From positions 4,841 through 36,840 of the forward strand of contig JAQVTI010000009.1 of the NCBI GenBank assembly GCA_028700115.1: a stretch of DNA of 32,000 bases, given 5' to 3'. The position numbers and the translations under genes were made by a program. The stretch comes from Candidatus Iainarchaeum sp. (lineage in GTDB: Archaea > Iainarchaeota > Iainarchaeia > Iainarchaeales > CSSED10-239). The first letter of the stretch is position 1, and each line of letters begins with the position of its first letter. Below the pieces are notes generated by a model, which saw nothing but the letters and a program-made list of their open reading frames with translations, was not told the DNA's origin and did no database searches. Below are positions 1-18,993 of the stretch, piece by piece.

Positions 1-44
1 GGATCTTTGAAGCATGGGTTGAATCCAGTGATTTGTAGATTTAA

Positions 45-296
45 ATGAAAAAAATTATTTTTAATAATAGAGAATATTGGTATAGGCAAGAAAAAGAAGA
101 TGTTTATATCTTATTTGAAAAAACTAACTATTTTTATCTTGTAAATATGATTATTATTGATGTAATAGAGTATTTAGCTAATAATAAAAGTTTATTAGAG
201 ATTACAGAAATTATTAATAAAAAATATCATATTAATATAACTGTAGATTTTTTAGTCACAAAATTAAAAAATATTGAGGGTATTATTAATGAGTAA
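45..296 (+). CDS. PqqD-like (RRE-type) small peptide-binding protein, putative
   Basis: 83-aa ORF. Strand-like segment EKEDVYILFEKTNYFYLVN followed by helical IIDVIEYLANNKSLLEITEIINKKY resembles PqqD/RRE chaperones. Its stop overlaps the ATG (289) of the next radical SAM/SPASM gene. Confidence 0.5.
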   Translation: MKKIIFNNREYWYRQEKEDVYILFEKTNYFYLVNMIIIDVIEYLANNKSLLEITEIINKKYHINITVDFLVTKLKNIEGIINE

Positions 297-1278
297 CTAT
301 TTTAGAACCCCTTTATTTCCTAGTATTGATCTTAGTACAAAATGTAATCTTAGTTGTATTCATTGTAGAAATAACAAAAATAAAATAAGTAAAATTCCTT
401 TTAAAAAAGTTATAGAACTATTAGATGAATTTGAATCTTTGGAAGTATTTCATTTAGCTTTTGCTGGTGGAGAACCATTTTTATTTCCTAAAATTTATGA
501 TGTATTAGAATATAGTCAAAAATTAAATGTGCCCAAGGTGACTATCGTAACTAATTGTACATTTATAAATAAAGATAGAATTGATAAATTAGATAATAAT
601 AAAATTAGGTTTGCTGTTAGTTTAGATGGACCAAAAGAAATACACAACTTTATTAGAAATGCAGATGTATTTGATAAAGTAATAGATAATATTAAATATT
701 TAGTTTCAAAAGGTTTTTTTGTTATGCTAAATTGTACTTTAATGAAATATAATTATAAATATTTCGATGAGATTATCAAAATTGCTAAAAATTTAAAAGT
801 TAATCAAATTAATTTTTCAAAAGTATTTCCTGTACATTCTGAGATTATTAAATTTATGCTTTCAAAAGAAGAATTAGATGAGTTATATGAAAACTATAGA
901 AAATATTCTGGTGAAGATAGTTTAGTTATATTCTTAGATAAAGGGTATATGGGTTTTCCTGATGCATATGATTCTGATATTGCATTTTCTATGGGTTGTA
1001 GAGCGGGTATTTCTCAAATAAATGTAATGTCGGATGGTTCTGTTGTAGGTTGTAAATTATTACCGGATGTTTGTGCTGGAAATATTTATAAAAATACAAT
1101 TAAAGAAATATGGGATGATAATAATAATTGGAAGTTATTCCGAAATGTTATACAAAATATTAATAGTGATACTTGTAAAAAATGTGATTATTTTTATGCT
1201 TGTAAAGGTGGATGTAGAGCATTTGCTTATTATATGACTGGAGATATAAATGGTAAGGATCCTTTATGTCCACTATAA
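289..1278 (+). CDS. radical SAM enzyme with C-terminal SPASM domain (PqqE/MftC/AlbA-like class)
   Basis: CNLSCIHC (CX3CX2C) near the N-terminus, plus GGEPF and VSLDGP motifs. C-terminal CKKCDYFYACKGGC (CX2CX5CX3C) with additional upstream Cys. ATG 289 preferred over the TTG 274 of the ORF track. Confidence 0.85.
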   Translation: MSNYFRTPLFPSIDLSTKCNLSCIHCRNNKNKISKIPFKKVIELLDEFESLEVFHLAFAGGEPFLFPKIYDVLEYSQKLNVPKVTIVTNCTFINKDRIDKLDNNKIRFAVSLDGPKEIHNFIRNADVFDKVIDNIKYLVSKGFFVMLNCTLMKYNYKYFDEIIKIAKNLKVNQINFSKVFPVHSEIIKFMLSKEELDELYENYRKYSGEDSLVIFLDKGYMGFPDAYDSDIAFSMGCRAGISQINVMSDGSVVGCKLLPDVCAGNIYKNTIKEIWDDNNNWKLFRNVIQNINSDTCKKCDYFYACKGGCRAFAYYMTGDINGKDPLCPL

Positions 1279-2907
1279 ATGATTACTATGAAAACTATTA
1301 GTGAGATAATTATAGAATTTATTAAATTTTTAAAAATTGATACTATATTTGGAATTCCTGGTTCTAATCTAGATTTTTTAAAGTATTTGTCAGAAGATAA
1401 AGTAATAAAATTTATTGTAAATAAAGATGAAAAAAATTCGCCTTATATGGCTATGGGGTATACTAAATCATCTAATAAAATTAGTTGTTGTTTTGGTAGT
1501 GTAGGTGCAGGAGTTTTTAATTTAATTCCTGGCACAATATCTGCTTATTATGAATCTGTTCCTTTATTAATAATCGGTGGGCAGACTAATTTAAAAAATA
1601 AAGGTAAAAATACTTTTCAAGAGGCCTCTGGATGTGCTAGAAGTGTAAGTCAGTTAAATGAATTTAAAAAAATAACTTTGTACAATTGTATTTTAAATGA
1701 AAAAAAATTGTTCCAACAATTAGAAAAAGTATTTTTTAGTTTAAATGATTTTAGATCTGGTCCGGTATATATTGAATTTCCATCAGAACTTATGAATTTA
1801 AAAATTAATTTTAATAAAAAAATATTTTGTAATATGAAAATTAATTTTAATAGATATAGATTAGATAAAATTAAATTATATGATGAATCAAAAAAAGTTA
1901 ATCAATTAATTATTGATTTAAATAAATCTAAAAAACCAGTTATATTAATTGGTAATGGTGTTAAAGATTCAAAAGAAATTATTAAATTATCATCTAAATT
2001 TAGAATTCCTATTTTTTCTACATTTAAAGGAAAAGATAGGGTTACAAATAATTTTAAGTATTATATGGGTTGTTTAGGATTAATTGGTAGTTCTATTGGT
2101 AATAATTATTTTAAAGAAAGTGATTTGTTAATATCTATTGGATCTAGTTTAAGTCAGTTTACTACGGATAATTGGAAATTAATTGATAATAAAAATATTT
2201 ATAGAATAGACACTATTAATGATGATATAACCAAACATAAGGGGATTGTAATTAAATCAGATTATTCTGATGTTTTTAAAAAACTTTTAAGTTCTGATTA
2301 CAAAGGAAATAATAATATTGTTGAATTAAAACAAAGTATTGATAATGAATTAAATAAATTTAATAGCCCTAAAATAAATTTAATAAGAAAATTAAGGACT
2401 AGTTTATCAAAAGACTCTATAATAGTTACTGAAGATATTTTTTTAATTGGTAAGTATTTTAAATTTTATAAAAATGATATTAATTTAAATTTTACAAATA
2501 TTGCTCCTATTGGGTGTGCCTTATCTGGAGGCATAGGGGCTCAAATAGCAAATTCTAAAAAAAAAGTTATTGTAATTTTGGGGGATGGAGGATTTAACAT
2601 GAATATTTCTGAATTAAATACAATTATGAATTATAAAATCCCTTTAAAAATTATATTAATTAATAATAATGGTTATGGTATAGTGTATAAATCACAAATA
2701 CATAAATTTAAAAATAATTTTTATACTCAATTTAAAAATCCAGATTATTTTAAATTAAGTCAATCATACAATTTTACTGCATATAATATAAATAATGTTT
2801 TTAAATTATCATTAAAAAAACTTAAAAAAATAATTAATTCAAATAAAACGGAATTAATAAATGTAAAAGTAGATATTGACGAAAAAATAGGAATTAAAAT
2901 ATATTAA
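1279..2907 (+). CDS. thiamine-diphosphate-dependent enzyme, acetolactate-synthase-like three-domain architecture
   Basis: 542 aa. N-terminal GIPGSNLDF region and C-terminal ThDP-binding motif GDGGFNMNISELNT...ILINNNGYG. The ATG directly abuts the upstream stop. Confidence 0.8.
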   Translation: MITMKTISEIIIEFIKFLKIDTIFGIPGSNLDFLKYLSEDKVIKFIVNKDEKNSPYMAMGYTKSSNKISCCFGSVGAGVFNLIPGTISAYYESVPLLIIGGQTNLKNKGKNTFQEASGCARSVSQLNEFKKITLYNCILNEKKLFQQLEKVFFSLNDFRSGPVYIEFPSELMNLKINFNKKIFCNMKINFNRYRLDKIKLYDESKKVNQLIIDLNKSKKPVILIGNGVKDSKEIIKLSSKFRIPIFSTFKGKDRVTNNFKYYMGCLGLIGSSIGNNYFKESDLLISIGSSLSQFTTDNWKLIDNKNIYRIDTINDDITKHKGIVIKSDYSDVFKKLLSSDYKGNNNIVELKQSIDNELNKFNSPKINLIRKLRTSLSKDSIIVTEDIFLIGKYFKFYKNDINLNFTNIAPIGCALSGGIGAQIANSKKKVIVILGDGGFNMNISELNTIMNYKIPLKIILINNNGYGIVYKSQIHKFKNNFYTQFKNPDYFKLSQSYNFTAYNINNVFKLSLKKLKKIINSNKTELINVKVDIDEKIGIKIY

Positions 2908-2919
2908 ATAAGTGATTTT

Positions 2920-3234
2920 ATGAAATATGGTATTGAGTATATAGTTAAAAAAGATTTCTTAGGTACTATTAAAATTATAAAGAATAGATCTGATTTTAAT
3001 AAAGTTAATGAAAATGATATTATTTTATTATTAAACACAAGTCCTGATGTTATTTTGTTATTTAATAAAATTAAAGGTGTTATTATTGAAATAGGAGGCC
3101 AAACATCACATTTAACAATTATTGCAAGAGAGAGTAATATGCCTCTAATTAGATTAAATAACGCTAAAGAAATAATTACAGATGGCGATTTTGTAAAAGT
3201 AGTTGAGGGTAATATTTATGTTAATGAAAATTGA
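2920..3234 (+). CDS. stand-alone PEP-utilizing-enzyme mobile (phosphohistidine swivel) domain protein
   Basis: 104 aa. DIILLLNTSPDVILLFNKIKGVIIEIGGQTSHLTIIARESNMPLI matches the GGxTSHaAIvARexgiP signature around the catalytic His of PEP synthase/PPDK/Enzyme I swivel domains. Confidence 0.8.
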   Translation: MKYGIEYIVKKDFLGTIKIIKNRSDFNKVNENDIILLLNTSPDVILLFNKIKGVIIEIGGQTSHLTIIARESNMPLIRLNNAKEIITDGDFVKVVEGNIYVNEN

Positions 3235-4225
3235 GGTTCTTTGTAAAAAGATAGCTAAAGATATATCTATAATACAAAAAGGAGGGGCAATTGAAACTCA
3301 GTGGCCTTTTTTAACTTCAGAAGTAGAAAACTATATTGGTGTTGATTTTATCAAACATTTAAGTAATATATTAGATGAAGCTTTATTAAACAATAATATA
3401 ACACAAATTGCTACTAAATTGAAATACCCTTCAATGATAACTCAATATATTGCTTTGATTCATAGTGCAAATGTATTACCTCTTAATAAAAGAATTGAAT
3501 TAATAACTAATTTAATAAGTATAATAGAAGAATTAAGAATGGACTATTTATGTAATAAAGGTATTAATATATTGCAAAATTTTGATATTAGTAAATTTTT
3601 ATCTAATGATATTAAACAAGATATTATTCCTCAAAAGATATCTAGTATTTTATATGCTTATACTGAAAAATTATATCCTACTTTAATGCGTTTGTCATTT
3701 GAACATCATGGTCCATATATTTTTAATAAAAAAAAATATGTTGTAAAAGAATATTTTAATCTTAAAAATCAATATTCAAATATGTTTCCTGTTTTTAACT
3801 ATGATAATGTTAAAATAATTCAAGAAATAGAAGGAGATTTTAATGTTGATTTTTTTGGGCATTCAATAGGAGATTATAAAATAGTTAATTCGATTTTAGT
3901 TGTAGATAATGAAATAATTAGTGACACAAATAAATTTTTAGAAGAAATATTAATTAATTTTATTAATTTAGATAAGTTATTTTTAGAATATACTGTTGAA
4001 GATTATGCTAAAAATTTAACAAATGGATTGTTTTATTCTTTAAAACCATTAACTACTTTAATTAATAAAGATTGGGTTCCATCTAAAAATATAATTGCTA
4101 AATTAAATGGGTTTAAATTATTTTTTCCTAGAGATAAAATTATTAATTATATAAAGTCTACAGATATAAATGAAATAGAATTTAAAGTGTACTTAAGTTT
4201 TAAAAATATTTTTATTAAAGATTAA
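3218..4225 (+). CDS. hypothetical protein, family X (paralog of 18112..18993)
   Basis: ATG 3218 (or 3224) overlaps the upstream stop. Shares N-terminal CKKIAKD...WPF and central FFGH motifs with the locus-B ORF. No known family recognised by eye. Confidence 0.6.
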   Translation: MLMKIEVLCKKIAKDISIIQKGGAIETQWPFLTSEVENYIGVDFIKHLSNILDEALLNNNITQIATKLKYPSMITQYIALIHSANVLPLNKRIELITNLISIIEELRMDYLCNKGINILQNFDISKFLSNDIKQDIIPQKISSILYAYTEKLYPTLMRLSFEHHGPYIFNKKKYVVKEYFNLKNQYSNMFPVFNYDNVKIIQEIEGDFNVDFFGHSIGDYKIVNSILVVDNEIISDTNKFLEEILINFINLDKLFLEYTVEDYAKNLTNGLFYSLKPLTTLINKDWVPSKNIIAKLNGFKLFFPRDKIINYIKSTDINEIEFKVYLSFKNIFIKD

Positions 4226-4227
4226 TT

Positions 4228-5076
4228 ATGAAATATGAAATTCATTTTAATTATAAATGTAATCAAAATTGTATTTTTTGTAGTGTATTACAACATCCTC
4301 AAAGAGATCTAGAATTAAGTGATTTAGATCTAATTTTACCTTTTATTCATAATAATCAAATTGTTCAAATTAGTGGAGGAGAGCCTTTATTAAATACAAA
4401 TTTGATTAAATGGGTAAAAGAAATTAAAAAAAAAACTAGATTTATTTCTTTAACTACTAATGGCACTTTATTAAATAAAGATAATTTAAATGAATTAATT
4501 AATTTAGGTGTAAATTGTTTTATTATTTCATTACATAGTAATACTATTAATAATTTTAAGAAAATAACTACAACTGATAACTTTAATAATGTAATAAATT
4601 GTTTAGAATTATTTAAAAAAATAAATAATAGTAGCATAAAAGTAATAGTTAATACCGTTATTACAAAATATAATATTTCTGAAATTTTCGATTTATTTAA
4701 AATGTTACATGAAAAATATGGTTTTGCTAAAATAAAATTATCTTATCCTAGATTTTATAAATTTGCAAAATCTGATTTTAATTGTAAAATTCATTTATTG
4801 TCATTAACAGATGTTCATTTCTTTTTAAAAGATATAATTAATAAACCTTATTTTGATAAACTTATTATAGAAAATATTCCTTCATGTATAATTAAACCTA
4901 GTAAAGAATATAGAGACTGGTCTACTAAACTTTTAACAGTAGATGGAATAAAAGATAGTGTAGATAACACGAGATATTATATGAAAAAATGTGTTACTTG
5001 TAATTTAAGATTAAATTGTCAAGGATTTCACAAATATTATAATTATTATTTTGACGATTATATTTTGGAAACATAA
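4228..5076 (+). CDS. radical SAM enzyme with short C-terminal Cys cluster (twitch/partial-SPASM-like)
   Basis: CNQNCIFC, SGGEPLL and TTNGTLL motifs. C-terminal CVTCNLRLNC. Starts 3 nt after the upstream stop. Confidence 0.8.
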   Translation: MKYEIHFNYKCNQNCIFCSVLQHPQRDLELSDLDLILPFIHNNQIVQISGGEPLLNTNLIKWVKEIKKKTRFISLTTNGTLLNKDNLNELINLGVNCFIISLHSNTINNFKKITTTDNFNNVINCLELFKKINNSSIKVIVNTVITKYNISEIFDLFKMLHEKYGFAKIKLSYPRFYKFAKSDFNCKIHLLSLTDVHFFLKDIINKPYFDKLIIENIPSCIIKPSKEYRDWSTKLLTVDGIKDSVDNTRYYMKKCVTCNLRLNCQGFHKYYNYYFDDYILET

Positions 5077-5128
5077 TTGTTTAGATAGATTTATTAATTT
5101 GTAATTATATATATTTATAGTGTTGTAT

Positions 5129-5848
5129 ATGTTTAAAGGAAATATTTCAACTAATTTAAAATTTACAAATAAATTAGATAGATTAAAAAAAGAAACTATA
5201 GCTTCTAAAAAAATTACTTTTGCAAGTTATCCAAAAAAAGAAGTTGCAATTAAGTATGTTGATGCTTTTTGGAAAAGATATTTTGATGGAAGCTTAGAAA
5301 AATCTTTATCTAAAAGAAAAGATAACCATTTTATTTCTAATTATAATCCAAATGTAAAAATTTTTCCTATTTCTCCTACAGTTTCTGTAACTGTAAGAAA
5401 AATGAATTTAATAGATGTAAGACCTTATTTCGAAATTCATAAATATTATAAAGAAAAATTTAAAAATGCAAATTTTAAATATTCTAAATTTGTTTTAACA
5501 GATATAATAGATTATAAGAAAAAAGGGGATTTTTATTATGTTCTTGAAAGAATAGTTCCTTCTATTAGTGTATATGATTTTTATGTGTCAGATTTTAAGG
5601 GTTTTAAAGAAAATAGATTTTCTAAATCTTTTCAGAAAAGTTTAGAAAAAGTGGATTTATTAAAGATGAAAGAAGATTTAGGTCCAGCATTAAATGAATT
5701 AAAACATTTTATTAATAATAATTCTAAATTTAAATTTAGACTTGATAATTCTAATAATAATATTATTATAATTGATTATAATCCAGAAACACATAAATTT
5801 AAATTTGGATTAATTGATTTTGCTGGTATGAGTTCTAAAAGTTTTTAA
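5129..5848 (+). CDS. protein-kinase-like fold protein, putative (RIO/Kdo-kinase-like)
   Basis: VAIK lysine motif, LDNSNNNIIII catalytic-loop-like segment and IDFAG (DFG-like) motif. ATG 5129 preferred over GTG 5120. Confidence 0.45.
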   Translation: MFKGNISTNLKFTNKLDRLKKETIASKKITFASYPKKEVAIKYVDAFWKRYFDGSLEKSLSKRKDNHFISNYNPNVKIFPISPTVSVTVRKMNLIDVRPYFEIHKYYKEKFKNANFKYSKFVLTDIIDYKKKGDFYYVLERIVPSISVYDFYVSDFKGFKENRFSKSFQKSLEKVDLLKMKEDLGPALNELKHFINNNSKFKFRLDNSNNNIIIIDYNPETHKFKFGLIDFAGMSSKSF

Positions 5849-5952
5849 AAATAATACTATTTTTTAAGTTTTTTTTTCTTATTTTGCAAACATCTATTTA
5901 TAAATTTATTGTTACTTGTATATTTATACAACTAATAATTAGGTGAATATTT

Positions 5953-7107
5953 ATGAATTACAAAAATTTTAATCCTTTACTTTTTTTAATGTCTTTAGGT
6001 GCTGGGGGTATTTCAATTATTCCTTTTGCGTTTTTACAATATACTTTTTTTAGTTCAAAAGGACTTGTTACTTTATCTGATGTATTAAGTTCAAGTTTAA
6101 GTATGTCTCAATTAGTTTTATTTAATTTTTTATTTATAGTTATGATTGTTTTTGGATTACTTCATTTAATTTTAAGTGTTATATTAATAAAACATTTAAT
6201 TAAATGGATAAAAGAAGGAAGATATAAAGAAATGTTAAATAATCCTTTAAAAAACTCTGCTCTTTTAGCTCCATTTATTTCTATTATAATGACTTTAAAT
6301 GTATTTATTGGTCCTATTAGATTTTTTATAAACCCTATTTCAAATAATCTTCAAAGTTTAATGATTTATGCATTAATCTTTTGGGGTTTAATATGGTTAT
6401 TTTTAATGTATTTAGATTTAAAGTTAATATCTATATCTTTTTTAAAAGATTTTGATGTTTCTAAAATAAATTTCGGATGGCTTTTACATTCTTTTGCATT
6501 AGGTATGGCTTCTGTAACTGGTTCTGGAATTGCAGCTTTATCTCAAAATATTTTAATTGCACACATTGCTGCATTCTTATCAACAATTTCTTTAAGTTTA
6601 GGTTTATTTTTATTAATAGTAAAACTAATAACTTTATTTAAATTCCATTTTGAATCAAAAGGATTACCTGATAAGCAATTTTTACCTAGTTTTTTAATAG
6701 TTATTCCAAATGTAACTTTATTTGCAATAACTTTATTTAGATTAGGTCATTATTTAGAACATGCTTTTTCATTTTCATTAGGAGCTTATTTTTTAGTAGT
6801 TATTCTTTTAAGCTTTGTATTTGAAATCTGGTATTTTGGTTTTTCTTTATTTTTACTTAAAGATTATTTTAAAAAACACTTTTTTAAAAAAGAATTCTAT
6901 ATATCTCAATGGGGGCTTGTTTGTCCAGTTGTAGCTTTTGCTGTTTTGGGTAGTTTTTTATATAAAGTATTTGTTCCTAATATAATATTATATATTGTAA
7001 TAATAGTAGTTTTAATTATTTCAGTTGTTTTGTTTTTTATACTTTTTATAAGACAATTAAAATGTAGTAATTTTTTAAAAAGTAAAAGTTTTATATGTAA
7101 GAATTAG
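5953..7107 (+). CDS. polytopic integral membrane protein (about 10 hydrophobic segments), putative transporter
   Basis: 384-aa ORF made of repeated 20-25-aa hydrophobic stretches. AGGTGA lies 7 nt before the ATG. Family not recognised with confidence. Confidence 0.7.
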   Translation: MNYKNFNPLLFLMSLGAGGISIIPFAFLQYTFFSSKGLVTLSDVLSSSLSMSQLVLFNFLFIVMIVFGLLHLILSVILIKHLIKWIKEGRYKEMLNNPLKNSALLAPFISIIMTLNVFIGPIRFFINPISNNLQSLMIYALIFWGLIWLFLMYLDLKLISISFLKDFDVSKINFGWLLHSFALGMASVTGSGIAALSQNILIAHIAAFLSTISLSLGLFLLIVKLITLFKFHFESKGLPDKQFLPSFLIVIPNVTLFAITLFRLGHYLEHAFSFSLGAYFLVVILLSFVFEIWYFGFSLFLLKDYFKKHFFKKEFYISQWGLVCPVVAFAVLGSFLYKVFVPNIILYIVIIVVLIISVVLFFILFIRQLKCSNFLKSKSFICKN

Positions 7108-9485: not shown

Positions 9486-10907
9486 TTATTTCTTCTTTGT
9501 GAAAAATTCAATAGCAACTTCTAGTTCTTTATGTGTTTTTGCATATTCTTCAATTGAAATTCCTTTTTTATATGCCTCACATGCCTGAACTAAAGCCATT
9601 GCTCCTTCTTTTGTACCATTTGGATGAGCATGACAACCTGCACCCATAGTTGTAATAAAGTCAACTCCACCCATAACATCAATAAATGGTTTTAATAAAG
9701 TAGGGTTAAGTCCTCCTGAAACAATAGGTGTACATTTTTTTACACCTCTCCATTCATCTTCATCTAAGATAGCTTTGTGTGCATGATCTTTTTCTACATT
9801 TTCAATAAAATCTAAATCTTTTTCAGATATTTTACCCCAAGATTGATCAAAGAAAAATCCTTTTCCATATAAATCTAATATGTTTTTAGCAGCAGTGATG
9901 TCTGATTTAGGAGTTCCATCCATTTTTCCAACTCCAGCAGTTCCTGTATGTATCCCAGAAGCTCCTGCAAGTCTTGCAAATTTAGATAAAACTAAAACTG
10001 AAAATCCAAAATCATTTTCTGGTCTTGTAAAAGCACCGTGAGCTGCTCTATGGAAATGTATAAAAACATCAGGATATCTTCTTCTTAGAGTTTGAACAGC
10101 CATCCATCCTGCAGTAATCCCATCTATTAAAAATGCATATGAACCTTTTTCAAATCCTGCATTTTCAATCATTTCACATCTTTTAATCATTGTGTCAAAA
10201 TCTGCAGCTGAAACATTAAAAGAGTGTACTTTTTTCTTTCCAGTCTCTTTTACTGCCTTTTCCATTGCGTTTTTTACATGTTTTACCATTTTATCGTATG
10301 GACAGAAGTCTTGGTCTGCTTGAGGCTCATCGTTTTTAACAAAGTCTCCTCCACCAACCCAGAAGTCATAACAAACTTCTGCATATTCTGCTGAAGTTAG
10401 TCCCATTTTTGGCTTTACAATTGTTCCTAGAATAGGTCTATTATAAACATCTAAGTATTTTCTCATATCATCAATTGTGTATGATGGTCCATCAAATTGT
10501 TCTAGCATAGAAGGAGGAAACCATAAGTCTAAAAGTTTAAGAGCAGAAACTTCTTTCATACCTAAAACATTTCCTACAATGTAAGTTAGTATATTTTGTA
10601 CATTTCCAACTCTATCAAAAAGTCTCCATGGATATGCAATCCATACAAGTTCTTTTTCTTGATCTAAGTCATAAACTAAAGCATTCATTTCTCTTGAGAA
10701 TGCAGTTTCTGTTTGTACTTTAAAATTAGTCCCAGTTGAAGACTCAGCTGCAATTTCTGCTGCTGCTTGTAAGACATTTAGTCCTTTACCTTCTTTCATT
10801 CTAAAAACACAAAGAAGATATTCTCCATTTTTTGTGTTTGGTATATTAAAATTAACATAGGCTTTTTGTTTTTCATTTAAAGTTTCATATAATTCATTTT
10901 TATTCAT
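9486..10907 (-). CDS. rbcL: RuBisCO large subunit, form II/III-like
   Basis: GGGDFVKNDEPQ (carbamyl-Lys motif in the KNDE variant of form II and II/III enzymes), HFHRAAHG, GIHTGT and VSGGLNP. No small-subunit gene nearby. Confidence 0.9.
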   Translation of the reverse strand: MNKNELYETLNEKQKAYVNFNIPNTKNGEYLLCVFRMKEGKGLNVLQAAAEIAAESSTGTNFKVQTETAFSREMNALVYDLDQEKELVWIAYPWRLFDRVGNVQNILTYIVGNVLGMKEVSALKLLDLWFPPSMLEQFDGPSYTIDDMRKYLDVYNRPILGTIVKPKMGLTSAEYAEVCYDFWVGGGDFVKNDEPQADQDFCPYDKMVKHVKNAMEKAVKETGKKKVHSFNVSAADFDTMIKRCEMIENAGFEKGSYAFLIDGITAGWMAVQTLRRRYPDVFIHFHRAAHGAFTRPENDFGFSVLVLSKFARLAGASGIHTGTAGVGKMDGTPKSDITAAKNILDLYGKGFFFDQSWGKISEKDLDFIENVEKDHAHKAILDEDEWRGVKKCTPIVSGGLNPTLLKPFIDVMGGVDFITTMGAGCHAHPNGTKEGAMALVQACEAYKKGISIEEYAKTHKELEVAIEFFTKKK

Positions 10908-10974: not shown

Positions 10975-11250
10975 TTATTCTTCAATTTTTATAGCTTTTC
11001 CATTAACTATAGAATCAGTAACTTTTTTTCTAGCCTCAAGTAAAAGTCTATGAAAAGTAGGTTGTGAAATCTCCATTTCCTTTGCACATTCTTCTTGTGC
11101 TTTTCCTAAGAAGTCTTTAAGTCTTAATGCTTCAATTTCTTCTTTTTTAAGATCTACTTGTTCTAGTTCTCTTTTAGAAATTCCAGCAGGTTTAAAGTAT
11201 TTTACATCAGTTTCAAAACAAATTCTTCTTTTTTTTCTAGGTCTTGGCAT
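10975..11250 (-). CDS. DUF134 (UPF0251) family predicted DNA-binding protein
   Basis: N-terminal MPRPRKKRRI...YFKP and C-terminal sigma-70 region-4-like HTH (MEISQPTFHRLL). Confidence 0.8.
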   Translation of the reverse strand: MPRPRKKRRICFETDVKYFKPAGISKRELEQVDLKKEEIEALRLKDFLGKAQEECAKEMEISQPTFHRLLLEARKKVTDSIVNGKAIKIEE

Positions 11251-11273
11251 ATTTTCTCATATTTTTTTCAAGT

Positions 11274-11618
11274 TTAATGATCACAGCTTTGTTTAATGTC
11301 TTTTAAGTAATCTATATTTTCAATAACTTCTTTTAGAATATTAAAATTTTCTGTTTTTAGTAAAATACTAGTTTTTGAAAATAAATCAATTGCTTTTTTT
11401 CCTATACCTTTTGTAAAAACTGCATCTATGTCTAGTTCTTGTATTTGTTCAACTGGTGTTTTTTCTTTAGAATGATCTATTATGTTTGGAATTATTTCTA
11501 AATTTTTAGAATCTGTAGAATATATTGCAAAAAAAGAACAATTTCCAAAATGTTCACTTAGTTTTGAGTCTAAGTTTTTATTTTCATCTAAAGCAATTAG
11601 TATTTTCATATTTTTCAA
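11274..11618 (-). CDS. NifB/NifX-type (dinitrogenase FeMo-cofactor biosynthesis domain) small protein
   Basis: KILIALDEN...LSEHFGNCSFFAIYS matches the HFG..xFxiy core of this domain family. Confidence 0.7.
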   Translation of the reverse strand: MKNMKILIALDENKNLDSKLSEHFGNCSFFAIYSTDSKNLEIIPNIIDHSKEKTPVEQIQELDIDAVFTKGIGKKAIDLFSKTSILLKTENFNILKEVIENIDYLKDIKQSCDH

Positions 11619-11703
11619 ATATTTAATTTATATAAATATATATTCGTTAAAAACGTTTTTATGTGTTTTTATTAAAAGTTTTTTTAAAAGAAAAGGCTAC
11701 TAT

Positions 11704-11847
11704 TTATATAGTAGCTCTTCTTCTAAGTCCTCTTCCTCTTCCAAGACCTCTATTTTCTTGATTTGTATTATTATCATTGCATTTTCCTTGTTTTCTTCCA
11801 GTCATTGGACCTTTTCCATCAGGACCTGTTCTATCTTGATTTGGCAT
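11704..11847 (-). CDS. DUF5320-like small Gly/Arg-rich protein (absent from the supplied ORF track)
   Basis: Hand translation gives 47 aa: MPNQDRTGPDGKGPMTGRKQGKCNDNNTNQENRGLGRGRGLRRRATI. GGAGG lies 7 nt upstream of the ATG. The MPxxDxTGPxGxGPMTGR start is the family signature. Confidence 0.65.
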   Translation of the reverse strand: MPNQDRTGPDGKGPMTGRKQGKCNDNNTNQENRGLGRGRGLRRRATI

Positions 11848-12076
11848 ATTAATTCCTCCTTTTATTGAATTTATATTCATATTGTGTTTGGAACAATTTA
11901 TAAATGTATTGAATATATATTCAATTTATTTTATAAACTTATAAACTAAAAAATATAAAATAATCTTTATTCTTTTTATAAATTTTATGTAAAACCAAAC
12001 CCCTTTTAATGATATTTGTTCTAATTATCTAAGTTTATGCTTATTTTAAACAAAAATATTAATAGGAGAGAAAATT

Positions 12077-12667
12077 ATGAGTGTTGAGAAAAATAATTGG
12101 GTAGAAATTGAATACGAAGGAAGTTTTGATGATGGAAAAGTATTTGATACAAACAAAGGTAAAGATCCTCTTAAATTTAGAATAGGAAGCAGAATGGTTA
12201 TTCCTGGATTTGAAAATGCAGTAATTGGTATGAAAGAAGGAGAAGAAAAAGAAGTTAAACTTACTCCTGGTGAAGCATATGGTCCAAAAAACGAAGAAGT
12301 TGTAGATTTACCAAAATCAGCTTTTGCTTCTCTAGAAGGTCTAGAAGAAGGAAAAGAACTTGAAATCATGACAAACATGGGTCCTATGTTAATTGAAGTT
12401 AAAAAATTAGAAGAAGAAAACATAAAAGCTGTTTTAAATCATCCTATGGCTGGTAAAAATTTAAATTTTAAAATTAAATTAATTAGAGTTTTACCAGAAG
12501 AAGAAGCTAAAAAAGAAGATGAATTATTTGCTCAAAGAATAAAAGATATGCAAGAGCAAATGGCAAAAGCTCAAGAAGAACATAACCATGAAGGATGCGA
12601 TTGTGGAGATGATTCTTGTAATGATGAATCATGTTCATGTGAAGATAAGGAAGAAAAGAAAGAATAA
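12077..12667 (+). CDS. slyD: FKBP-type peptidyl-prolyl cis-trans isomerase, SlyD-like
   Basis: VEIEYEGSFDDGKVFDTN...IPGFENAVIGMKEGEEKEV...AYGP FKBP core with an inserted flap segment. Acidic Cys/His-rich tail HNHEGCDCGDDSCNDESCSCED. Confidence 0.9.
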   Translation: MSVEKNNWVEIEYEGSFDDGKVFDTNKGKDPLKFRIGSRMVIPGFENAVIGMKEGEEKEVKLTPGEAYGPKNEEVVDLPKSAFASLEGLEEGKELEIMTNMGPMLIEVKKLEEENIKAVLNHPMAGKNLNFKIKLIRVLPEEEAKKEDELFAQRIKDMQEQMAKAQEEHNHEGCDCGDDSCNDESCSCEDKEEKKE

Positions 12668-12705
12668 TTTCTTTCTTTTTTTATATTTTTTTATAAGTGA
12701 TTTTT

Positions 12706-12864
12706 ATGAAAGTTTATGTGTGTTATCATATTATGAGGGATAAAAAATCATTTACAATAGATTTAGTTACTAGTTCTAAGAAAAAAGCAGACGAATGGTT
12801 TAAAGAAAACGATCCATATCTTTGGAGTGATGCAAAGATAGAGGAACATGAAGTTACTGAATAA
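12706..12864 (+). CDS. small hypothetical protein (52 aa)
   Basis: ATG-initiated ORF MKVYVCYHIMRDKKSFTIDLVTSSKKKADEWFKENDPYLWSDAKIEEHEVTE, not in the track. No family recognised. Confidence 0.25.
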   Translation: MKVYVCYHIMRDKKSFTIDLVTSSKKKADEWFKENDPYLWSDAKIEEHEVTE

Positions 12865-12954
12865 CTTCATTTAATATTTTTCTATTTTTAATAGTTTACG
12901 TTATAACGTTAACTTTTAATGAATAGTTAACGGTATACTGTTAACTTTTATGTG

Positions 12955-13009
12955 AATAATTCCTTTTCGTATTGAGTAAATTTTAATTATTTTCCCTTTG
13001 CCAAAAGGA
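12955..13009. repeat. 55-bp direct repeat, copy 1 (ends 35 nt upstream of the AAA ATPase ATG)
   Basis: aataattccttttcgtattgagtaaattttaattattttccctttgccaaaagga. 50/55 identical to 14312-14366. Confidence 0.9.
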
Positions 13010-13044
13010 ATATATTTATATATGTTTTTATATATAATTTTAAT

Positions 13045-14304
13045 ATGGATAAAGATTATTTAGAAAGAATAATTTTAGATCAGTCTGAAGATCTTAAACA
13101 AATAGATTTAGGTTTACCTAGAGATAAACTTTTAGATTTAGATACTCAAATTAAATCAAAAATAAATATAATAATTACAGGTGTTAGGCGTTGTGGTAAA
13201 TCTACTTTATTATTACAAATAATGAATAAATATTATAAAAATAAATTTTATTATTTAAGATTTGCAGATGAAAGACTTTCAGATATAAAAATAGATGATT
13301 ATCAAAAAATATATGAAATATTTCAATCAAATTTTAATATGAATAATATATTTTTTTTTGATGAAATACAAGGTAAACCTAATTGGGATAAATTTGTTAA
13401 TAGATTGTATGAAACTGGAAATAAATTTTATATAACTGGATCAAATTCAGAATTATTAAGTAAAGAAATATCTACTTATCTTACAGGAAGACATTTAGAT
13501 GTTGAATTATATCCTTTTTCTTTTAAAGAATATTTAAATTTTAAAAAGATTAATTTAGATTATAGATATTCAAAAAATTTAATAAAAATAGAAAAAGAAC
13601 TAAATAACTATATAAAAATAGGTGGTTTTCCACAAGTTGTTGTTGAAAATAATTTAGTATTACTTGAAGAAATATATGAAGATATAATTAATAAAGATAT
13701 TTTATTAAGATATAATTTAAATGATGTAGCTATTTTTAAAAAAATAGCATTATTTTTAATATCAAATATATCAAAAGAATTTTCATATAATTCTATTAAG
13801 AAAATGTACGATATAGGTAATTCTGATACTGTTAGAAATTATGTTTATTATCTTAAAAATGCTTATTTATTATTTGAATTACCTAAATATGACTATTCTT
13901 TGAAAAAACAAGAAAGTTATTCTAAAAAGATTTATGCTATAGATACTGGTTTAATAAATAAGTTGGCTTTTTCTTTTTCTGAGAATATAGGTCGGCTTTA
14001 TGAAAATTTAGTTTTTATAGAATTAAAAAGAAGAAATAAAAGGATATATTTTTGGAAAGATAAATCTAATTATGAAATAGATTTTATAATTTTAGAAAAA
14101 AATAAAGTGACTTCTTTAATACAAGTTGTATATGATTTAAGTGATTTAAAAACAAAAGAAAGAGAAATAAGAGGCTTAATTTCTGGTTTAAAAGAATTTA
14201 AGCTTAAAGAAGGTATAATAATTACAAAAGATTTAGACAAAAAAGAAAAAATAGATAATTTAACTATAAAATATATACCTTTATGGAAATGGTTATTAGA
14301 ATAA
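13045..14304 (+). CDS. AAA+ ATPase with DUF4143-type C-terminal domain (COG1373-like)
   Basis: Walker A GVRRCGKST and Walker B FFFDEIQ. Length and C-terminal layout are typical of this family. Confidence 0.85.
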   Translation: MDKDYLERIILDQSEDLKQIDLGLPRDKLLDLDTQIKSKINIIITGVRRCGKSTLLLQIMNKYYKNKFYYLRFADERLSDIKIDDYQKIYEIFQSNFNMNNIFFFDEIQGKPNWDKFVNRLYETGNKFYITGSNSELLSKEISTYLTGRHLDVELYPFSFKEYLNFKKINLDYRYSKNLIKIEKELNNYIKIGGFPQVVVENNLVLLEEIYEDIINKDILLRYNLNDVAIFKKIALFLISNISKEFSYNSIKKMYDIGNSDTVRNYVYYLKNAYLLFELPKYDYSLKKQESYSKKIYAIDTGLINKLAFSFSENIGRLYENLVFIELKRRNKRIYFWKDKSNYEIDFIILEKNKVTSLIQVVYDLSDLKTKEREIRGLISGLKEFKLKEGIIITKDLDKKEKIDNLTIKYIPLWKWLLE

Positions 14305-14549: not shown

Positions 14550-15842
14550 ATGTTAGATATAAAATATATCAGAGAATATCCTGATAAAGTAAAAGAAAAC
14601 CTAGAAAAGAAAAATAGATCAGATAAGTCCTTTTTAGTTGATGATATTTTAAAATTAGATGAAGATTATAGAGCTTTAATAAAAATTGTAAATGATTTAA
14701 AACATCAAAGAAATAAAATTACAGAAAACATAAAACAAGAAAAAATAAAAGGAAATGATACTTCTGATTTAATCTTAGAAGCAAAAGAACTTCCTGGTAA
14801 AATAAAAGAAAAAGACGAAGAATTAAAAGCTCTAAAACTAGAACTTCTAAAATTACAAAACCAAATACCAAACATAGTAAGTCCAGAGACACCTTTAGGA
14901 AAAGATGAATCTGAAAACAAAGAGATTGAAATGTATGGTGAGATTGTAAAAAAAGATTTTAAAATAAAGCATCATGGTGAAATTTTAGAAAAACTAAATG
15001 TTTTAGATCTAGATTCAGCTAGAGAAAACTCAGGAAAGGGATTTTATTATTTAAAAGGAGATTTAGCTCTTTTAAATAATGCACTTATTAGATATGCACA
15101 AGATATCTTTGCAAAAAAAGGATATACATTTATCTTACCTCCTTTAATGATAAATAAACAAGCATGTGATGGTGTTATTGATTTTGAGTTTTTTAGAGAT
15201 ATGGTTTATAAGATAGAAAATGAAGACTTATATCTAATAGGTACATCAGAACATCCATTAATTGCAATGTTTATAAATAAAGTTATTCCTGAAGAAAACT
15301 TGCCTATTAAGCTATATGGATTTTCAAGTTGTTTTAGAAAAGAAATAGGTGCTCATGGACTTGATGAGAGAGGGCTTTTTAGACTTCATCAATTTGATAA
15401 GGTTGAACAAGTTGTAATCTGTAAGCCAGATGAATCTATTCAAATATTTGATGAACTTAAAAACAATACTGTAGATTTATTTAAATCTCTAGGGCTTCCT
15501 ACAAGGGTTTTAGAACTTTGTACAGGAGATTTAGGAGATCATAAGTATAGACAAGTAGATATTGAAGTTTTTTCACCTAGAAAAAATGACTTTATTGAAG
15601 TAGGTTCTTGTTCAAACTTAACAGAAGCTCAAGCAATTGGTCTAAATATTAAGGTAAAAAACAAACAATCTGAAAAATACTATGCACATACACTAAATAA
15701 CACTGGAATTGCAACACAAAGAGCACTTGTTGCAATTGTAGAAAACTTTCAAACAGAAAAAGGAACAATTAAGGTTCCAGATGTTTTAGTGCCTTATATG
15801 TATGGAAAAGAAGAGATAGAAGTTAATCCTTCTTTCTTTTAA
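14550..15842 (+). CDS. serS: seryl-tRNA synthetase
   Basis: N-terminal coiled-coil arm. Class II core motifs FRKEIGAHG, GLFRLHQFDKVEQ and TLNNTGIATQRALVAIVENFQ. GGAGG lies 8 nt before the ATG. Confidence 0.95.
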   Translation: MLDIKYIREYPDKVKENLEKKNRSDKSFLVDDILKLDEDYRALIKIVNDLKHQRNKITENIKQEKIKGNDTSDLILEAKELPGKIKEKDEELKALKLELLKLQNQIPNIVSPETPLGKDESENKEIEMYGEIVKKDFKIKHHGEILEKLNVLDLDSARENSGKGFYYLKGDLALLNNALIRYAQDIFAKKGYTFILPPLMINKQACDGVIDFEFFRDMVYKIENEDLYLIGTSEHPLIAMFINKVIPEENLPIKLYGFSSCFRKEIGAHGLDERGLFRLHQFDKVEQVVICKPDESIQIFDELKNNTVDLFKSLGLPTRVLELCTGDLGDHKYRQVDIEVFSPRKNDFIEVGSCSNLTEAQAIGLNIKVKNKQSEKYYAHTLNNTGIATQRALVAIVENFQTEKGTIKVPDVLVPYMYGKEEIEVNPSFF

Positions 15843-16415: not shown

Positions 16416-17345
16416 TTATTGTTGTTTATTATAAACTTTAACTATTTTTTTATAAAATTTACACATTTCCATAAATTGATTAGGATTTGTCTTTTCTAAA
16501 AATTTGCACCCTCCTTTACAGTAATTCCATATTTCGCAATTTTTATTTAAACATATATTAATATTATTTATTTTTTTTAGATTATATTTTTTATACATTG
16601 TTAATAAATGACATCTATCATAACTACCATCTGGAAATATTCCATAAGTTGTATTTTCATAATAACCACAAAATTTATTTTTATTTAATTTATTATCTAA
16701 ATAATTAAAAAAATAATTTGAAAATGGGGATATTTTTATATTTTTTTTATGAAGTGAAAGTATGTATTCTATATCTTTAATAGTTATTCTTTTTATAGAA
16801 TTTATATTGGAAAAATTAAATCCTATGTAATTTGGATTTAATTTTAATAAATTAATTATATTCTTTTTAAAATTAATTTTTGTAGATATTGTGGATGATA
16901 TTTGTAATTGTATCCCTCCTTTTTTAATTAATTTAGCATTTGTTATAAGTTTTTTTATATTGGTTGATCTATTTTTTAAATTAGTTTCAATAGGGTCAAT
17001 ACTTATAGTTATATTTTTAATACCCCAATTTTTAAGTTTTTTAATTGTATTTTTGTTAATTAAAGTTCCATTTGTAATTATATTAAAATTGTAAATACCT
17101 AGTAATTTTAATCTTATTATAATTTTTTTAATGTTTTTTAAGTCTAATAAAGGTTCTCCACCATAAAAAATAATTGTAGAATCCGATCTATATTTTTTTG
17201 GAACTAATAAGTTAATAGAATTTATAATATTATTTATGTCAAATGCATTTTTTTTATTTAATAAATTAATTTTTTTTAAATAACAATATTTACAATTTAA
17301 GTTACAATTATATGTAGTTATTATAAATAATTTATATTTTTTCAT
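16416..17345 (-). CDS. radical SAM enzyme with SPASM-like C-terminus
   Basis: CNLNCKYC, YGGEPLL and ITNGTLI motifs. C-terminal CLNKNCEIWNYCKGGC. 4-nt overlap with the upstream gene. Confidence 0.8.
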   Translation of the reverse strand: MKKYKLFIITTYNCNLNCKYCYLKKINLLNKKNAFDINNIINSINLLVPKKYRSDSTIIFYGGEPLLDLKNIKKIIIRLKLLGIYNFNIITNGTLINKNTIKKLKNWGIKNITISIDPIETNLKNRSTNIKKLITNAKLIKKGGIQLQISSTISTKINFKKNIINLLKLNPNYIGFNFSNINSIKRITIKDIEYILSLHKKNIKISPFSNYFFNYLDNKLNKNKFCGYYENTTYGIFPDGSYDRCHLLTMYKKYNLKKINNINICLNKNCEIWNYCKGGCKFLEKTNPNQFMEMCKFYKKIVKVYNKQQ

Positions 17346-17779
17346 AATTCTTCTAAAATATTAATGGTTTTTTCTAAATTATAATTTATAAATAAATTAT
17401 CTCTTTTATTTTTATAATTTTTTATTAATTTATTTATATTATCGTTAATTAATATTGGATCACAATTTAGAAATAATAATTTTTTACAGTTATTATAAAA
17501 ATATGTGGTTAACAATAAATTATCTAGTATGTTATAATTTATTTTAACAAAAGTATTTACCGATAAAGGATAAATTAAAATTAAATTTGGTTTTGGAATT
17601 GAATTAATATTACTCCATTCTATTTTTCTATTTTTTAAAAATTTGAATTTATTTAAATTAAATAAATTATATGAATTATTTGAAATACAATAATATACTT
17701 TATTTTTTTTAAGGATATTGTTAATTTTATCTAAATTCAATATATTTTGACCAGCACAAACTAAAACATATATAATCAT
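17342..17779 (-). CDS. divergent flavoprotein-family (HFCD/EpiD/Dfp-N-like) homolog, putative
   Basis: LILIYPLSVNTFVKINYNILDNLLLT aligns by eye with the (P)ASANT..KiAnGiaDnLLt core of the Flavoprotein family. The N-terminal IIYVLVCAGQN strand-loop is degenerate. Confidence 0.4.
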   Translation of the reverse strand: MIIYVLVCAGQNILNLDKINNILKKNKVYYCISNNSYNLFNLNKFKFLKNRKIEWSNINSIPKPNLILIYPLSVNTFVKINYNILDNLLLTTYFYNNCKKLLFLNCDPILINDNINKLIKNYKNKRDNLFINYNLEKTINILEEL

Positions 17780-18108
17780 AAATTATCAATTGTAATGGTT
17801 TTTTTATTAAAATCAATTATTAATTTTTTATTATTTTTAAACAAATTTATATTATCTACTTTTATTAAAAATATTTTTTTTTCTCTAGCAAATATACTCA
17901 TGTGACTTAAATAACTTCCATTTTCAATAATTCCCCCTAATGAATAAAGTAAATATGGAGAATCCATAGGGGTTAGGGATTTAGAAATTAGAATTTTATC
18001 TTTAATTTTATTTAAATTTGTATTATTTTTTAAAATCAAAGATTTTCCAGAAATTATTTTTGTCATATTAGATTTACTTAATATTTCAAATTTAATTTTA
18101 TTTATCAT
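17776..18108 (-). CDS. stand-alone PEP-utilizing-enzyme mobile (swivel) domain protein, divergent
   Basis: ILISKSLTPMDSPYLLYSLGGIIENGSYLSHMSIFAREKKIFLI keeps the spacing and the SH...AR core of the swivel-domain His motif. Confidence 0.7.
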   Translation of the reverse strand: MINKIKFEILSKSNMTKIISGKSLILKNNTNLNKIKDKILISKSLTPMDSPYLLYSLGGIIENGSYLSHMSIFAREKKIFLIKVDNINLFKNNKKLIIDFNKKTITIDNL

Positions 18109-18111
18109 TTA

Positions 18112-18993
18112 TTATTCCTCTAAAAGATATTTTATGAAGTTATGTGTATTTTTAATTACTTTTGTTTTATTTTCAATAAATATACTTGCATCTTTATCAG
18201 TATCTACATTTAAATATTTGTTTACATCTAAAATATATTTATTTTTTAAATTAATATGAGTTGTGAATTGGTTATAAACATAATTAACTTTATCTTTATT
18301 TAATTTTAATTTTATATTTTTTTTAAGATTTATTAAATGTAGTGATAATTCATTTATTAATTTATTTGGATTTATGGTTTTATTATTTTTCATAATTAAA
18401 AAATCATTTATTTCTTCTACTTTAAATATATGTCCAAAAAAGCTAATATCTGGTTTTTTTATATAATTACTTATTAAAATATATTTTTGATTATTAATAT
18501 TATATTCTCTATATAATTTCCCATTAAATGTGTATATGTTAAATCCAACTCCTCTAAAAATTGGAAAATAAATTTCATTTAAATTATCTAATAAAAATAC
18601 TGTAGAATAATATAATTCTCTATTTTTAATAAATCTACCTAATTTTAAGTCTTTATTTGGATTTAATTTTAAATCCATTGTTTTTTCTAATGTTATGTCT
18701 TCATATTTATCAATTAAATAAGTTATTATTTTTTTAAAATATTTTTTTTGTGTAATTTTATTTGTTTTTTTATTTATTAACATTAGTAAATATGATCTTA
18801 ATTCAAAAAAAGAAATATTTGATATATTATTATCAATATAATCTTTAAGATATGGTGTGAAATTTTCTGCGAATATATTAGAAATTATGGTTGATGATAA
18901 TGGCCAATTATGAATTGTAGAACCAGATATACATAGATAAAACATATCTTTACTTATTTTATTACAAATTTTATTTATTAATTTCTTTTCCAT
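18112..18993 (-). CDS. hypothetical protein, family X (paralog of 3218..4225)
   Basis: ATG 18993 (MEKKLINKICNKISKD...) preferred, 1 nt after the upstream stop. Shares C(N/K)KI(S/A)KD...WP(L/F) and FFGH motifs with the locus-A ORF. Confidence 0.6.
   Translation of the reverse strand: MEKKLINKICNKISKDMFYLCISGSTIHNWPLSSTIISNIFAENFTPYLKDYIDNNISNISFFELRSYLLMLINKKTNKITQKKYFKKIITYLIDKYEDITLEKTMDLKLNPNKDLKLGRFIKNRELYYSTVFLLDNLNEIYFPIFRGVGFNIYTFNGKLYREYNINNQKYILISNYIKKPDISFFGHIFKVEEINDFLIMKNNKTINPNKLINELSLHLINLKKNIKLKLNKDKVNYVYNQFTTHINLKNKYILDVNKYLNVDTDKDASIFIENKTKVIKNTHNFIKYLLEE

Follow-up and report, generated by a model that had tools for sequence, protein, structure and literature searches.

Pyrroloquinoline quinone (PQQ) and mycofactocin are derived from short peptides. 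PQQ is made from a glutamate and a tyrosine of PqqA, which are joined by PqqE, and mycofactocin is made from the C-terminal Val-Tyr of MftA. The leaders of lasso peptides are bound by proteins such as TfuB1 and TbiB1, which are recognition elements (RREs) of peptides that are made by ribosomes and modified after translation (RiPPs). Radical S-adenosylmethionine (SAM) enzymes of the anSME/DynA type work without an RRE. The Iainarchaeota are DPANN archaea, which have tiny genomes and few biosynthetic pathways. The DNA analysed here, referred to as the window, is a 32-kb stretch of a Candidatus Iainarchaeum sp. contig (JAQVTI010000009.1) with a G+C content of ~20%. Its left end is occupied by locus A, a group of genes that encode a PqqD-like protein, two radical SAM enzymes, a thiamine diphosphate (ThDP)-dependent enzyme, a phospho-histidine "swivel" domain and a protein termed X. 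A second group, locus B, lies 11.3 kb away. The results presented here indicate, with a probability of about 0.62, that locus A is a self-contained copy of a DPANN-conserved cassette that matures a small ribosomal peptide. This function is predicted from sequence and genomic context.

Locus A appears to have its own precursor peptide. The first-pass annotation of the window saw no substrate open reading frame (ORF) for this locus and proposed that the contig be extended to the left. Three contigs recovered by an exact-match look-up of the 83-aa PqqD-like protein (L001, L002 and L003) reach past the left edge of the window, and in all three a 43-aa ORF with a GGAG Shine-Dalgarno sequence is called directly upstream of the PqqD-like gene. 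The complete peptide is MDKINQQVSQQINIDKLFVIKKLPITSKEKNGIFEAWVESSDL. Its start does lie left of the edge, but its C-terminal core is present in the window. Bases 3-38 are the last 11 codons and the stop of the ORF (…GIFEAWVESSDL*), with positions 3-35 coding for IFEAWVESSDL and the stop codon at 36-38, six bases ahead of the PqqD-like start codon. A precursor-type peptide with an invariant E-x-W-x-E near its C-terminus is encoded in all related loci that cover the upstream region (9/9). The peptides end in ...LPITAREKKGIFEAWAESSDL in L006 and L011, in ...FPVSGEEGKIAEFWIES(D) in L013, L016, L034, L036 and L037, and in ...CREMWGEGST in the distant locus L019, and the leader of the family has a conserved (L/F)P(I/V)(T/S) motif. 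A motif scan returned exactly one E-x-W-x-E ORF per locus in the nine loci spanning the region upstream of the PqqD and radical SAM/SPASM pair, and no such ORF in five loci with only swivel and X (L004, L012, L031, L032 and L038).

Another ORF at the left edge was considered and rejected as the precursor. This 16-aa ORF in frame 1 (MGSLKHGLNPVICRFK*) has "CRFK" in common with the 48-aa peptide of locus B. The orthologous frame in L006 and L011 reads ...VIYRFF and VIYRLL, so it is not conserved, and the cysteine of the B peptide is an aspartate in L021. The conserved frame is that of the 43-aa peptide. A seryl-tRNA synthetase (SerRS) gene lies near the cassettes in the window, and in the Pacearchaeota locus L013 such a gene (12000-13286) directly adjoins the A-type precursor gene.

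The 83-aa protein is probably a PqqD/RRE-like protein, and likely a RiPP recognition element, or peptide chaperone. A profile built from six orthologues has as its top PDB matches TfuB1 (6jx3_B, E = 0.0029) and TbiB1 (5v1u, E = 0.035). Five of the six orthologues are matched by Pfam PqqD, under its gathering score, with a best E-value of 2.3e-4. The earlier PqqD-like label, the weakest point of the first description, is therefore supported for the orthologue family and not for the protein of the window taken by itself, which has no match in Pfam and a weak NCBIfam match to the PqqD protein WgkC (E = 0.05).

The gene order, sizes and domain content first described for locus A hold for all six ORFs, which lie on the plus strand at the positions given in Table 1. 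They had rightly been called overlapping or abutting; in gene order, successive genes overlap by 8 nt, abut directly, are 12 nt apart, overlap by 17 nt and are 2 nt apart. Full-length orthologues of every gene of locus A are present in other archaeal contigs at 35-67% identity, indicating that these six ORFs are not due to chance. Loci for comparison were fetched with a closer subset of sequences, as the broad alignment was too divergent for retrieval, and all co-occurrence statistics cover contig fragments rather than complete genomes. The A-type cassette recurs in Pacearchaeota, Micrarchaeota and unclassified ("uncultured archaeon") and metagenomic contigs, in three layouts. In the window, the genes for precursor, PqqD-like protein, radical SAM/SPASM enzyme, ThDP enzyme, swivel, X and second radical SAM enzyme follow one another on a single strand. 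L006 and L011 have the same order without the second radical SAM gene; a PPDK_N gene follows X, and the second radical SAM gene and a short-chain dehydrogenase/reductase (SDR) gene are divergent. In L013, L016, L034, L036 and L037, the ThDP, swivel, X and second radical SAM genes converge with those for precursor, PqqD-like protein and radical SAM/SPASM enzyme. The trio of peptide, PqqD-like protein and radical SAM/SPASM enzyme accompanies the ThDP enzyme, swivel, X and second radical SAM enzyme in every A-type locus with long-enough flanks. Downstream of locus A is a gene for a SLAC1/TehA-type membrane transporter, which could be an exporter; it is not conserved beside other A-type cassettes.

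Table 1. Positions of the genes of loci A and B and of other features in the 32-kb window
Locus	Feature	Position	Strand	Basis or remark
A	Precursor-peptide gene, 3' end, clipped by window edge	1-38	+	Extended contigs
A	PqqD-like protein, 83 aa	45-296	+	Orthologue-profile evidence
A	Radical SAM/SPASM enzyme, 329 aa from ATG	289-1278	+	PF04055 1.2e-21, PF13186 1.3e-8
A	ThDP-dependent enzyme, acetolactate-synthase-like, 542 aa	1279-2907	+	Pfam TPP_enzyme_N, _M, _C
A	Stand-alone PEP-utiliser "swivel" phospho-histidine domain, 104 aa	2920-3234	+	PF00391 1.4e-13
A	X, 335 aa from ATG	3218-4225	+	No Pfam or NCBIfam family
A	Second radical SAM enzyme, 282 aa, HxsC/MoaA-like	4228-5076	+	PF04055 2.5e-20
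	242-aa ORF	5120-5848	+	Directly after locus A
	SLAC1/TehA-type membrane transporter	5953-7107	+	PF03595 1.3e-12
	RuBisCO large-chain homologue	9486-10907	-	Pfam RuBisCO_large
	DUF134, NifX/Nitro_FeMo-Co-like protein, 58-aa Gly/Arg-rich ORF	10975-11880	-	Small gene group
	FKBP/SlyD-like isomerase	12077-12667		Cys/His-rich tail
	Seryl-tRNA synthetase	14550-15842	+	
B	Whole locus	16416-20851	-	
B	Second radical SAM enzyme	16416-17345	-	Domain match
B	HFCD-type flavoprotein	17342-17779	-	Domain match
B	Swivel	17776-18108	-	Domain match
B	X paralogue (X_B)	18112-19056	-	Paralogue of X of locus A (X_A)
B	Methyltransferase	18995-19561	-	Domain match
B	anSME-like radical SAM/SPASM enzyme	19551-20696	-	Domain match
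B	48-aa precursor peptide, ending ...DEYVDGY	20705-20851	-	Strong AGGAGG Shine-Dalgarno
	185-aa protein	21055-21612	+	HATPase_c_4 and winged helix-turn-helix domains
	Large Thr/Ser-rich proteins	23716-28080	+	G+C about 0.30 vs 0.20

The first radical SAM enzyme of locus A is probably a peptide maturase. Its translation contains a CX3CX2C motif and the full SPASM cysteine pattern (CX2CX5CX3C plus flanking cysteines). The best NCBIfam matches are AhbD, NirJ2, WgkB, MftC and PqqE, all below cut-off (107.9 bits against 265 for the MftC equivalog TIGR03962, and 89.5 against 381 for the PqqE equivalog TIGR02109), and the best PDB matches are anSME (2e-14) and PqqE (2e-8). The second radical SAM enzyme has a C-terminal CxxCx5C motif. 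It scores 82 bits with MoaA and 65.4 bits with HxsC (TIGR03977, cut-off 267.9), both below cut-off, the latter over residues 10-269, nearly the whole protein. Orthologues within the same cassette are found in L006, L011, L013, L015, L016, L034, L036 and L037, at 33-38% identity. PADLOC pVip models and the PDB viperin are among its matches, and in fact its best ones, which would fit an antiviral defence system with this enzyme as a prokaryotic viperin. Such a role is scarcely credible, as the pVip models match all three tested radical SAM enzymes similarly, with alignments confined to the generic core (~150 of the 257 profile positions), NCBIfam NF038283 reaches 55.5 bits against a cut-off of 180, and no other cassette protein matches a defence family. 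The ThDP enzyme is closest in NCBIfam to acolac_lg (TIGR00118), with 244 bits against a cut-off of 538, and in the PDB to BbmA (8x3x, 1.3e-44), followed by acetolactate synthases. By NCBIfam cut-offs it does not class as an acetolactate synthase.

The relation of locus A to locus B had been left open between two independent systems and two loci cooperating in trans. The latter idea rested on complementary content, with an RRE-like protein in A and a small ORF in B. Locus B does contain a small ORF and no discrete RRE, and the 48-aa peptide is conserved in L020, L021 and L022, where it ends in [D/E]-Y-[V/A]-D-[G/K]-Y, giving the core Y-x-D-x-Y-COOH. The described difference in accessory enzymes, ThDP enzyme in A versus methyltransferase and flavoprotein in B, is upheld by the domain calls, as is the inverted order of swivel and X. 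The common core proved smaller than first described. The first radical SAM enzyme is AhbD/NirJ/MftC-like in A and anSME/DynA-like in B. The second is HxsC/MoaA-like with a CxxCx5C tail in A and has a SPASM/twitch-like tail in B, and the two match each other (E = 2e-6) no better than generic radical SAM cores. Since the radical SAM enzymes belong to different subfamilies, the true common core is swivel and X. Alignment of these pairs gave 37% identity (E = 7e-8) for the swivels and 23% (E = 5e-6) for X_A and X_B, which are thus distant paralogues. A neighbour-joining tree places X_A and X_B in different clades; each of the two has orthologues elsewhere that are closer to it, and X_B ranks 56th of 59 among the neighbours of X_A.

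Each cassette type also occurs without the other. A-type cassettes without B-type genes, in the flanks available (up to +/-10 kb), are found in L006, L011, L013, L016, L034, L036 and L037. The B-type loci have neither a PqqD gene nor A-type genes; L020 contains genes for peptide, radical SAM/SPASM enzyme, X, swivel, flavoprotein and radical SAM enzyme, and L021/L022 contain those for peptide, radical SAM enzyme, X, swivel and two more proteins. Among the fetched loci, both types are together only in this window. As the closest relatives of the paralogues lie elsewhere and each locus occurs independently of the other, the description of A as a second copy of the core in B largely lapses, and the option of two independent systems is borne out by the recurrence of each type alone in other DPANN genomes. 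It is very improbable that A and B are halves of one system in which A supplies the RRE-like protein for the 48-aa peptide of B. Their proximity within 32 kb, their shared X and swivel and the lack of a discrete RRE in B would fit such a system, but A has a precursor gene directly upstream of its own PqqD-like gene, the peptide cores are unrelated (E-x-W-x-E versus Y-x-D-x-Y), the two types recur separately, and anSME/DynA-like enzymes such as that of B can do without an RRE. Cooperation in trans is therefore unlikely, and locus B is a different, independently distributed cassette that shares only the swivel and X module with A. The stretch between loci A and B contains a RuBisCO large-chain gene, and the B-type cassette of L020, from another metagenome-assembled genome (MAG), also adjoins a RuBisCO gene (4817-6277). 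This may reflect shared synteny rather than shared function.

The shared module resembles part of a split phosphotransferase. All of the eight swivel proteins compared, which come from A-type, B-type and minimal loci, keep the phospho-carrier His64 (motif GGxTSH). X has no match in Pfam, NCBIfam or PDB sequences, the last also searched with a sequence profile of X. No more than three relatives came from a word-indexed search, and an exhaustive hidden Markov model search among 1.84 billion representatives found at least 150, with 50 at E <= 1e-10. Most members of the family stand alone and are 340-370 aa long. A PPDK_N-swivel-X fusion occurs in two (P0073 and P0135) and an X-HAD phosphatase fusion in one (P0054, 584 aa). 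The neighbourhood of P0073 is B-like in order, with radical SAM enzyme, methyltransferase, PPDK_N-swivel-X and an aconitase-family protein. PPDK_N, swivel and a third domain is the order of phosphoenolpyruvate (PEP) synthase, which places X in the position of the acceptor (pyruvate-binding) domain. X is therefore predicted to stand in for the pyruvate-binding acceptor domain of PEP-synthase-like enzymes. In stand-alone X loci for which adjoining DNA is present and a swivel is detectable, the swivel gene is always directly beside X, upstream in A-type and minimal loci and downstream in B-type loci.

X may have a new fold. A first model from 4 sequences was unusable (predicted local distance difference test, pLDDT, 50) and was replaced by an AlphaFold2 model from a 60-sequence alignment (pLDDT 96.5, predicted template-modelling score 0.94). 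This model shows a helical bundle at the N-terminus, an antiparallel sheet of four strands, and helices at the C-terminus. A Foldseek search of this model against 350,542 PDB chains found no match (best E = 0.2, template-modelling score <= 0.15). The residues conserved across the family, W29, P30, N117, E150, E162, H164, G165, P166, Y167 and D211, suggest a polar or metal-binding site; X_B is without the E162/H164-G-P segment. X was also considered as a degenerate ATP-grasp, which was rejected since it is unrelated to PPDK_N (hhalign probability 0.6%). In loci with only swivel and X, the next gene encodes a conserved 234-241-aa HExxH protein (HELMH/HEVMH; L004 5962-6666, L005 3265-3966, L032 10981-11706), and a different HExxH protein is at the same position after swivel and X in L031 (3167-3892). 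These HExxH proteins may be peptidases linked to X.

A separate PPDK_N gene of 313-316 aa adjoins X in L006-L010, L011, L004/L005 and L019. Stand-alone PPDK_N proteins of ~315 aa, without swivel or acceptor domain, are extremely common in bacteria of the candidate phyla radiation (CPR) and DPANN archaea, with at least 7,048 matches at E <= 1e-40. One example is encoded in L040 (2288-3238), and that of another "Ca. ainarchaeum" MAG adjoins ribosomal protein genes. It is plausible, because stand-alone PPDK_N is so common in these organisms, that PPDK_N is supplied to locus A in trans. The 242-aa ORF directly after locus A was examined as a substitute ATP-grasp and rejected. It has no likeness to cassette PPDK_N (E = 0.8), no Pfam, NCBIfam or PADLOC family and no homologue in any other A-type locus, and it is unrelated to the gene beside PPDK_N in L040. 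Its C-terminus (…NNNIIIIDYNPETHKFKFGLIDFAG) looks like the catalytic-loop/DFG region of protein kinases.

Several observations weigh against maturation of a peptide by the cassette as a whole. The 83-aa protein of the window itself falls short of every PqqD threshold. PPDK_N is absent from most A-type loci (L013, L034, L036 and L037) and from the window, where tblastn with two cassette PPDK_N proteins found nothing; the phosphoryl donor is for this reason a candidate only. No conserved protease or exporter was found in the cassette. Swivel-X pairs occur without any peptide or radical SAM gene in L004, L031, L032 and L024, and P0054 joins X to a HAD phosphatase, while in L024 X adjoins a His_Phos_1-family protein, so X may act on a small molecule rather than a peptide. 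The protein beside X in L024 (3362-4225) has a faint match to His_Phos_1, and glycosyltransferases also adjoin. An aconitase-family protein adjoins an X-family member in L023 (4445-5710). There is a hint in these associations that some X proteins handle small phosphorylated metabolites.

The swivel-X pairs of L004, L031 and L032 and the HAD phosphatase, His_Phos_1 and aconitase associations of X would also fit a small-molecule pathway of which the small upstream ORF is not the substrate. The ThDP enzyme, swivel-X and radical SAM enzymes would then build or phosphorylate a 2-oxo or hydroxy acid, with X as an alternative pyruvate/PEP-type binding domain, in agreement with a ThDP gene that lies immediately upstream of swivel-X in all A-type loci. 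This pathway is unlikely given that, wherever A-type flanks suffice, the trio of peptide, PqqD-like protein and radical SAM/SPASM enzyme is found together with the rest of the set (ThDP enzyme, swivel, X and second radical SAM enzyme). Moreover, orthologue sets that are 33-67% identical share an unchanged peptide core, and the minimal B-type set, consisting of peptide, radical SAM enzyme, X and swivel, has no small-molecule enzyme. Peptide maturation thus remains the preferred function of the cassette.

A mechanism for peptide maturation by locus A can be proposed. The PqqD-like protein would bind the leader, which carries the (L/F)P(I/V)(T/S) motif, and present the core to the radical SAM/SPASM enzyme, which by analogy with PqqE would modify or cross-link the Glu/Trp core (E-x-W-x-E). 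An ATP-grasp PPDK_N protein would phosphorylate the swivel histidine. Such a protein has its gene in cis in L006, L011, L019 and L004 and forms part of a fusion in P0073; for locus A it must act in trans or be absent. The phosphoryl group would then pass by way of the swivel to whatever substrate X binds (ATP -> His~P -> acceptor). There is an even chance that the acceptor is a peptide side chain with an acidic or hydroxyl group, which is favoured by the minimal B-type set. The 2-oxo or hydroxy-acid product of the adjacent ThDP carboligase is a somewhat weaker candidate, favoured by the constant position of the ThDP gene, the existence of swivel-X-only loci, the HAD fusion of P0054 and the His_Phos_1 neighbour in L024. 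Both peptide cores alternate acidic and aromatic residues at i and i+2, which would fit related chemistry for the shared module.

The product could also be a peptide-derived redox cofactor or small molecule rather than a secreted peptide, with the E-x-W-x-E core cross-linked and excised, after which the ThDP enzyme and the phosphotransferase, joined in some loci by the SDR, would tailor it. This is a variant of peptide maturation and not its true opposite. The combination of PqqD-like protein, radical SAM/SPASM enzyme and short acid/aromatic peptide is the layout of PQQ and mycofactocin, with MftC and PqqE among the best matches. Small-molecule enzymes are conserved in the cassette (ThDP enzyme always, SDR in L006 and L011), which contains no conserved exporter or immunity gene and is kept in the very small genomes of several DPANN phyla. 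A cofactor is nonetheless doubtful, since the scores fall far short of the cut-offs for PqqE and MftC, the cassette has no conserved peptidase and no partner dehydrogenase is evident.

It is proposed, tentatively and with the odds against it, that X is a newly recognised acceptor domain, with an apparently new fold, for histidine-swivel (PEP-synthase-type) phosphotransferases. In this proposal, the module with X was recruited twice in DPANN archaea, into two distinct radical SAM cassettes, where it would phosphorylate or activate a ribosomal peptide whose core is acidic and aromatic (E-x-W-x-E or Y-x-D-x-Y), in the A type together with a ThDP carboligase. If so, this would be, to our knowledge, the first RiPP-type pathway with a His~P relay and the first with ThDP chemistry on or alongside the peptide, and a peptide-derived cofactor specific to reduced-genome DPANN archaea could result. 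The full-text literature, of which coverage was incomplete so that this is absence of evidence only, gave no description of the cassette, of X, or of a radical SAM, ThDP and phospho-histidine relay combination for ribosomal peptides. Two elaborate peptide-linked cassettes are present within 32 kb and are kept across several DPANN phyla. Their conservation despite tiny genomes suggests that the product, whether cofactor, signal or host-interaction molecule, matters to these archaea. X is a confidently modelled family, without a recognisable structural relative, at the substrate-binding position of PEP synthase and rifampin phosphotransferase. The combination of radical SAM, ThDP and phospho-histidine relay chemistry may yield new chemistry, and the E-x-W-x-E and Y-x-D-x-Y cores provide testable hypotheses.

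Archaeal housekeeping genes in the window include those for the RuBisCO large-chain homologue, SerRS, a DEAD-box helicase and DUF134. The gene group that contains DUF134 adjoins the gene for the FKBP/SlyD-like isomerase. The 185-aa protein with HATPase_c_4 and winged helix-turn-helix domains has a short NAPV x4 tandem repeat and seemingly lacks the N-terminal part usual for its family. In the block of higher G+C, at least two of the large Thr/Ser-rich proteins start with a hydrophobic, signal-like N-terminus, and two match bacterial Ig-like domains (Big_12; Big_13 and Big_3_3 under gathering score). These are probably surface or adhesion proteins.

Locus A can be compared with two kinds of known systems, phosphotransferases and radical SAM peptide pathways. 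Like the three-domain His-swivel enzymes PEP synthase, pyruvate phosphate dikinase (PPDK), rifampin phosphotransferase and PigC/RedH, it has a swivel with a conserved phospho-histidine, and relatives of its module have PPDK_N adjacent or fused in the PEP synthase order; the predicted flow from ATP over His~P to an acceptor would also match. Unlike in these enzymes, the enzyme of locus A is split into separate polypeptides, with the ATP-grasp absent from the window. With no match in Pfam, among PDB sequences or by Foldseek, X is not the PEP/pyruvate TIM barrel (PF02896) and shows no detectable likeness to the rifampin-binding domain. Moreover, the module is in the context of radical SAM and peptide genes.

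Locus A shares with the PQQ (PqqA/D/E) and mycofactocin (MftA/B/C) systems a short precursor encoded ahead of a PqqD-type chaperone (a probable one in locus A) and a radical SAM/SPASM enzyme, and invariant acidic and aromatic core residues. However, the core is E-x-W-x-E and not the E-x3-Y of PqqA, the precursor ends in ...ESSDL and not in the C-terminal Gly-Val-Tyr of mycofactocin, and there are no equivalents of PqqB/C/F or MftD/E/F. Locus A in turn adds a ThDP enzyme, a second radical SAM enzyme, and swivel and X. The layout of precursor, PqqD/RRE and radical SAM/SPASM enzyme is also that of radical-SAM RiPPs (RaS-RiPPs) with a discrete PqqD, such as streptococcal WgkABC, sactipeptides and ranthipeptides. 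WgkB and WgkC are among the best NCBIfam matches, and the core contains a tryptophan, as in WgkABC. In contrast to these systems, locus A is in an archaeal (DPANN) host and has ThDP and phosphotransfer genes without counterpart, and its scores are below cut-off. A thioether of the sactipeptide or ranthipeptide type is excluded because the core has no cysteine. The His-Xaa-Ser system (HxsA-D) likewise pairs a SPASM radical SAM enzyme with a shorter HxsC-like one, but the HxsC score is only 65 of the 268 bits needed, the A precursor has no His-Xaa-Ser repeats, and HxsD is missing. Although every specific family test fails on score or motif, the layout of locus A is, as far as can be judged from the genes, that of radical-SAM peptide maturation, as in PQQ, mycofactocin and RaS-RiPPs.

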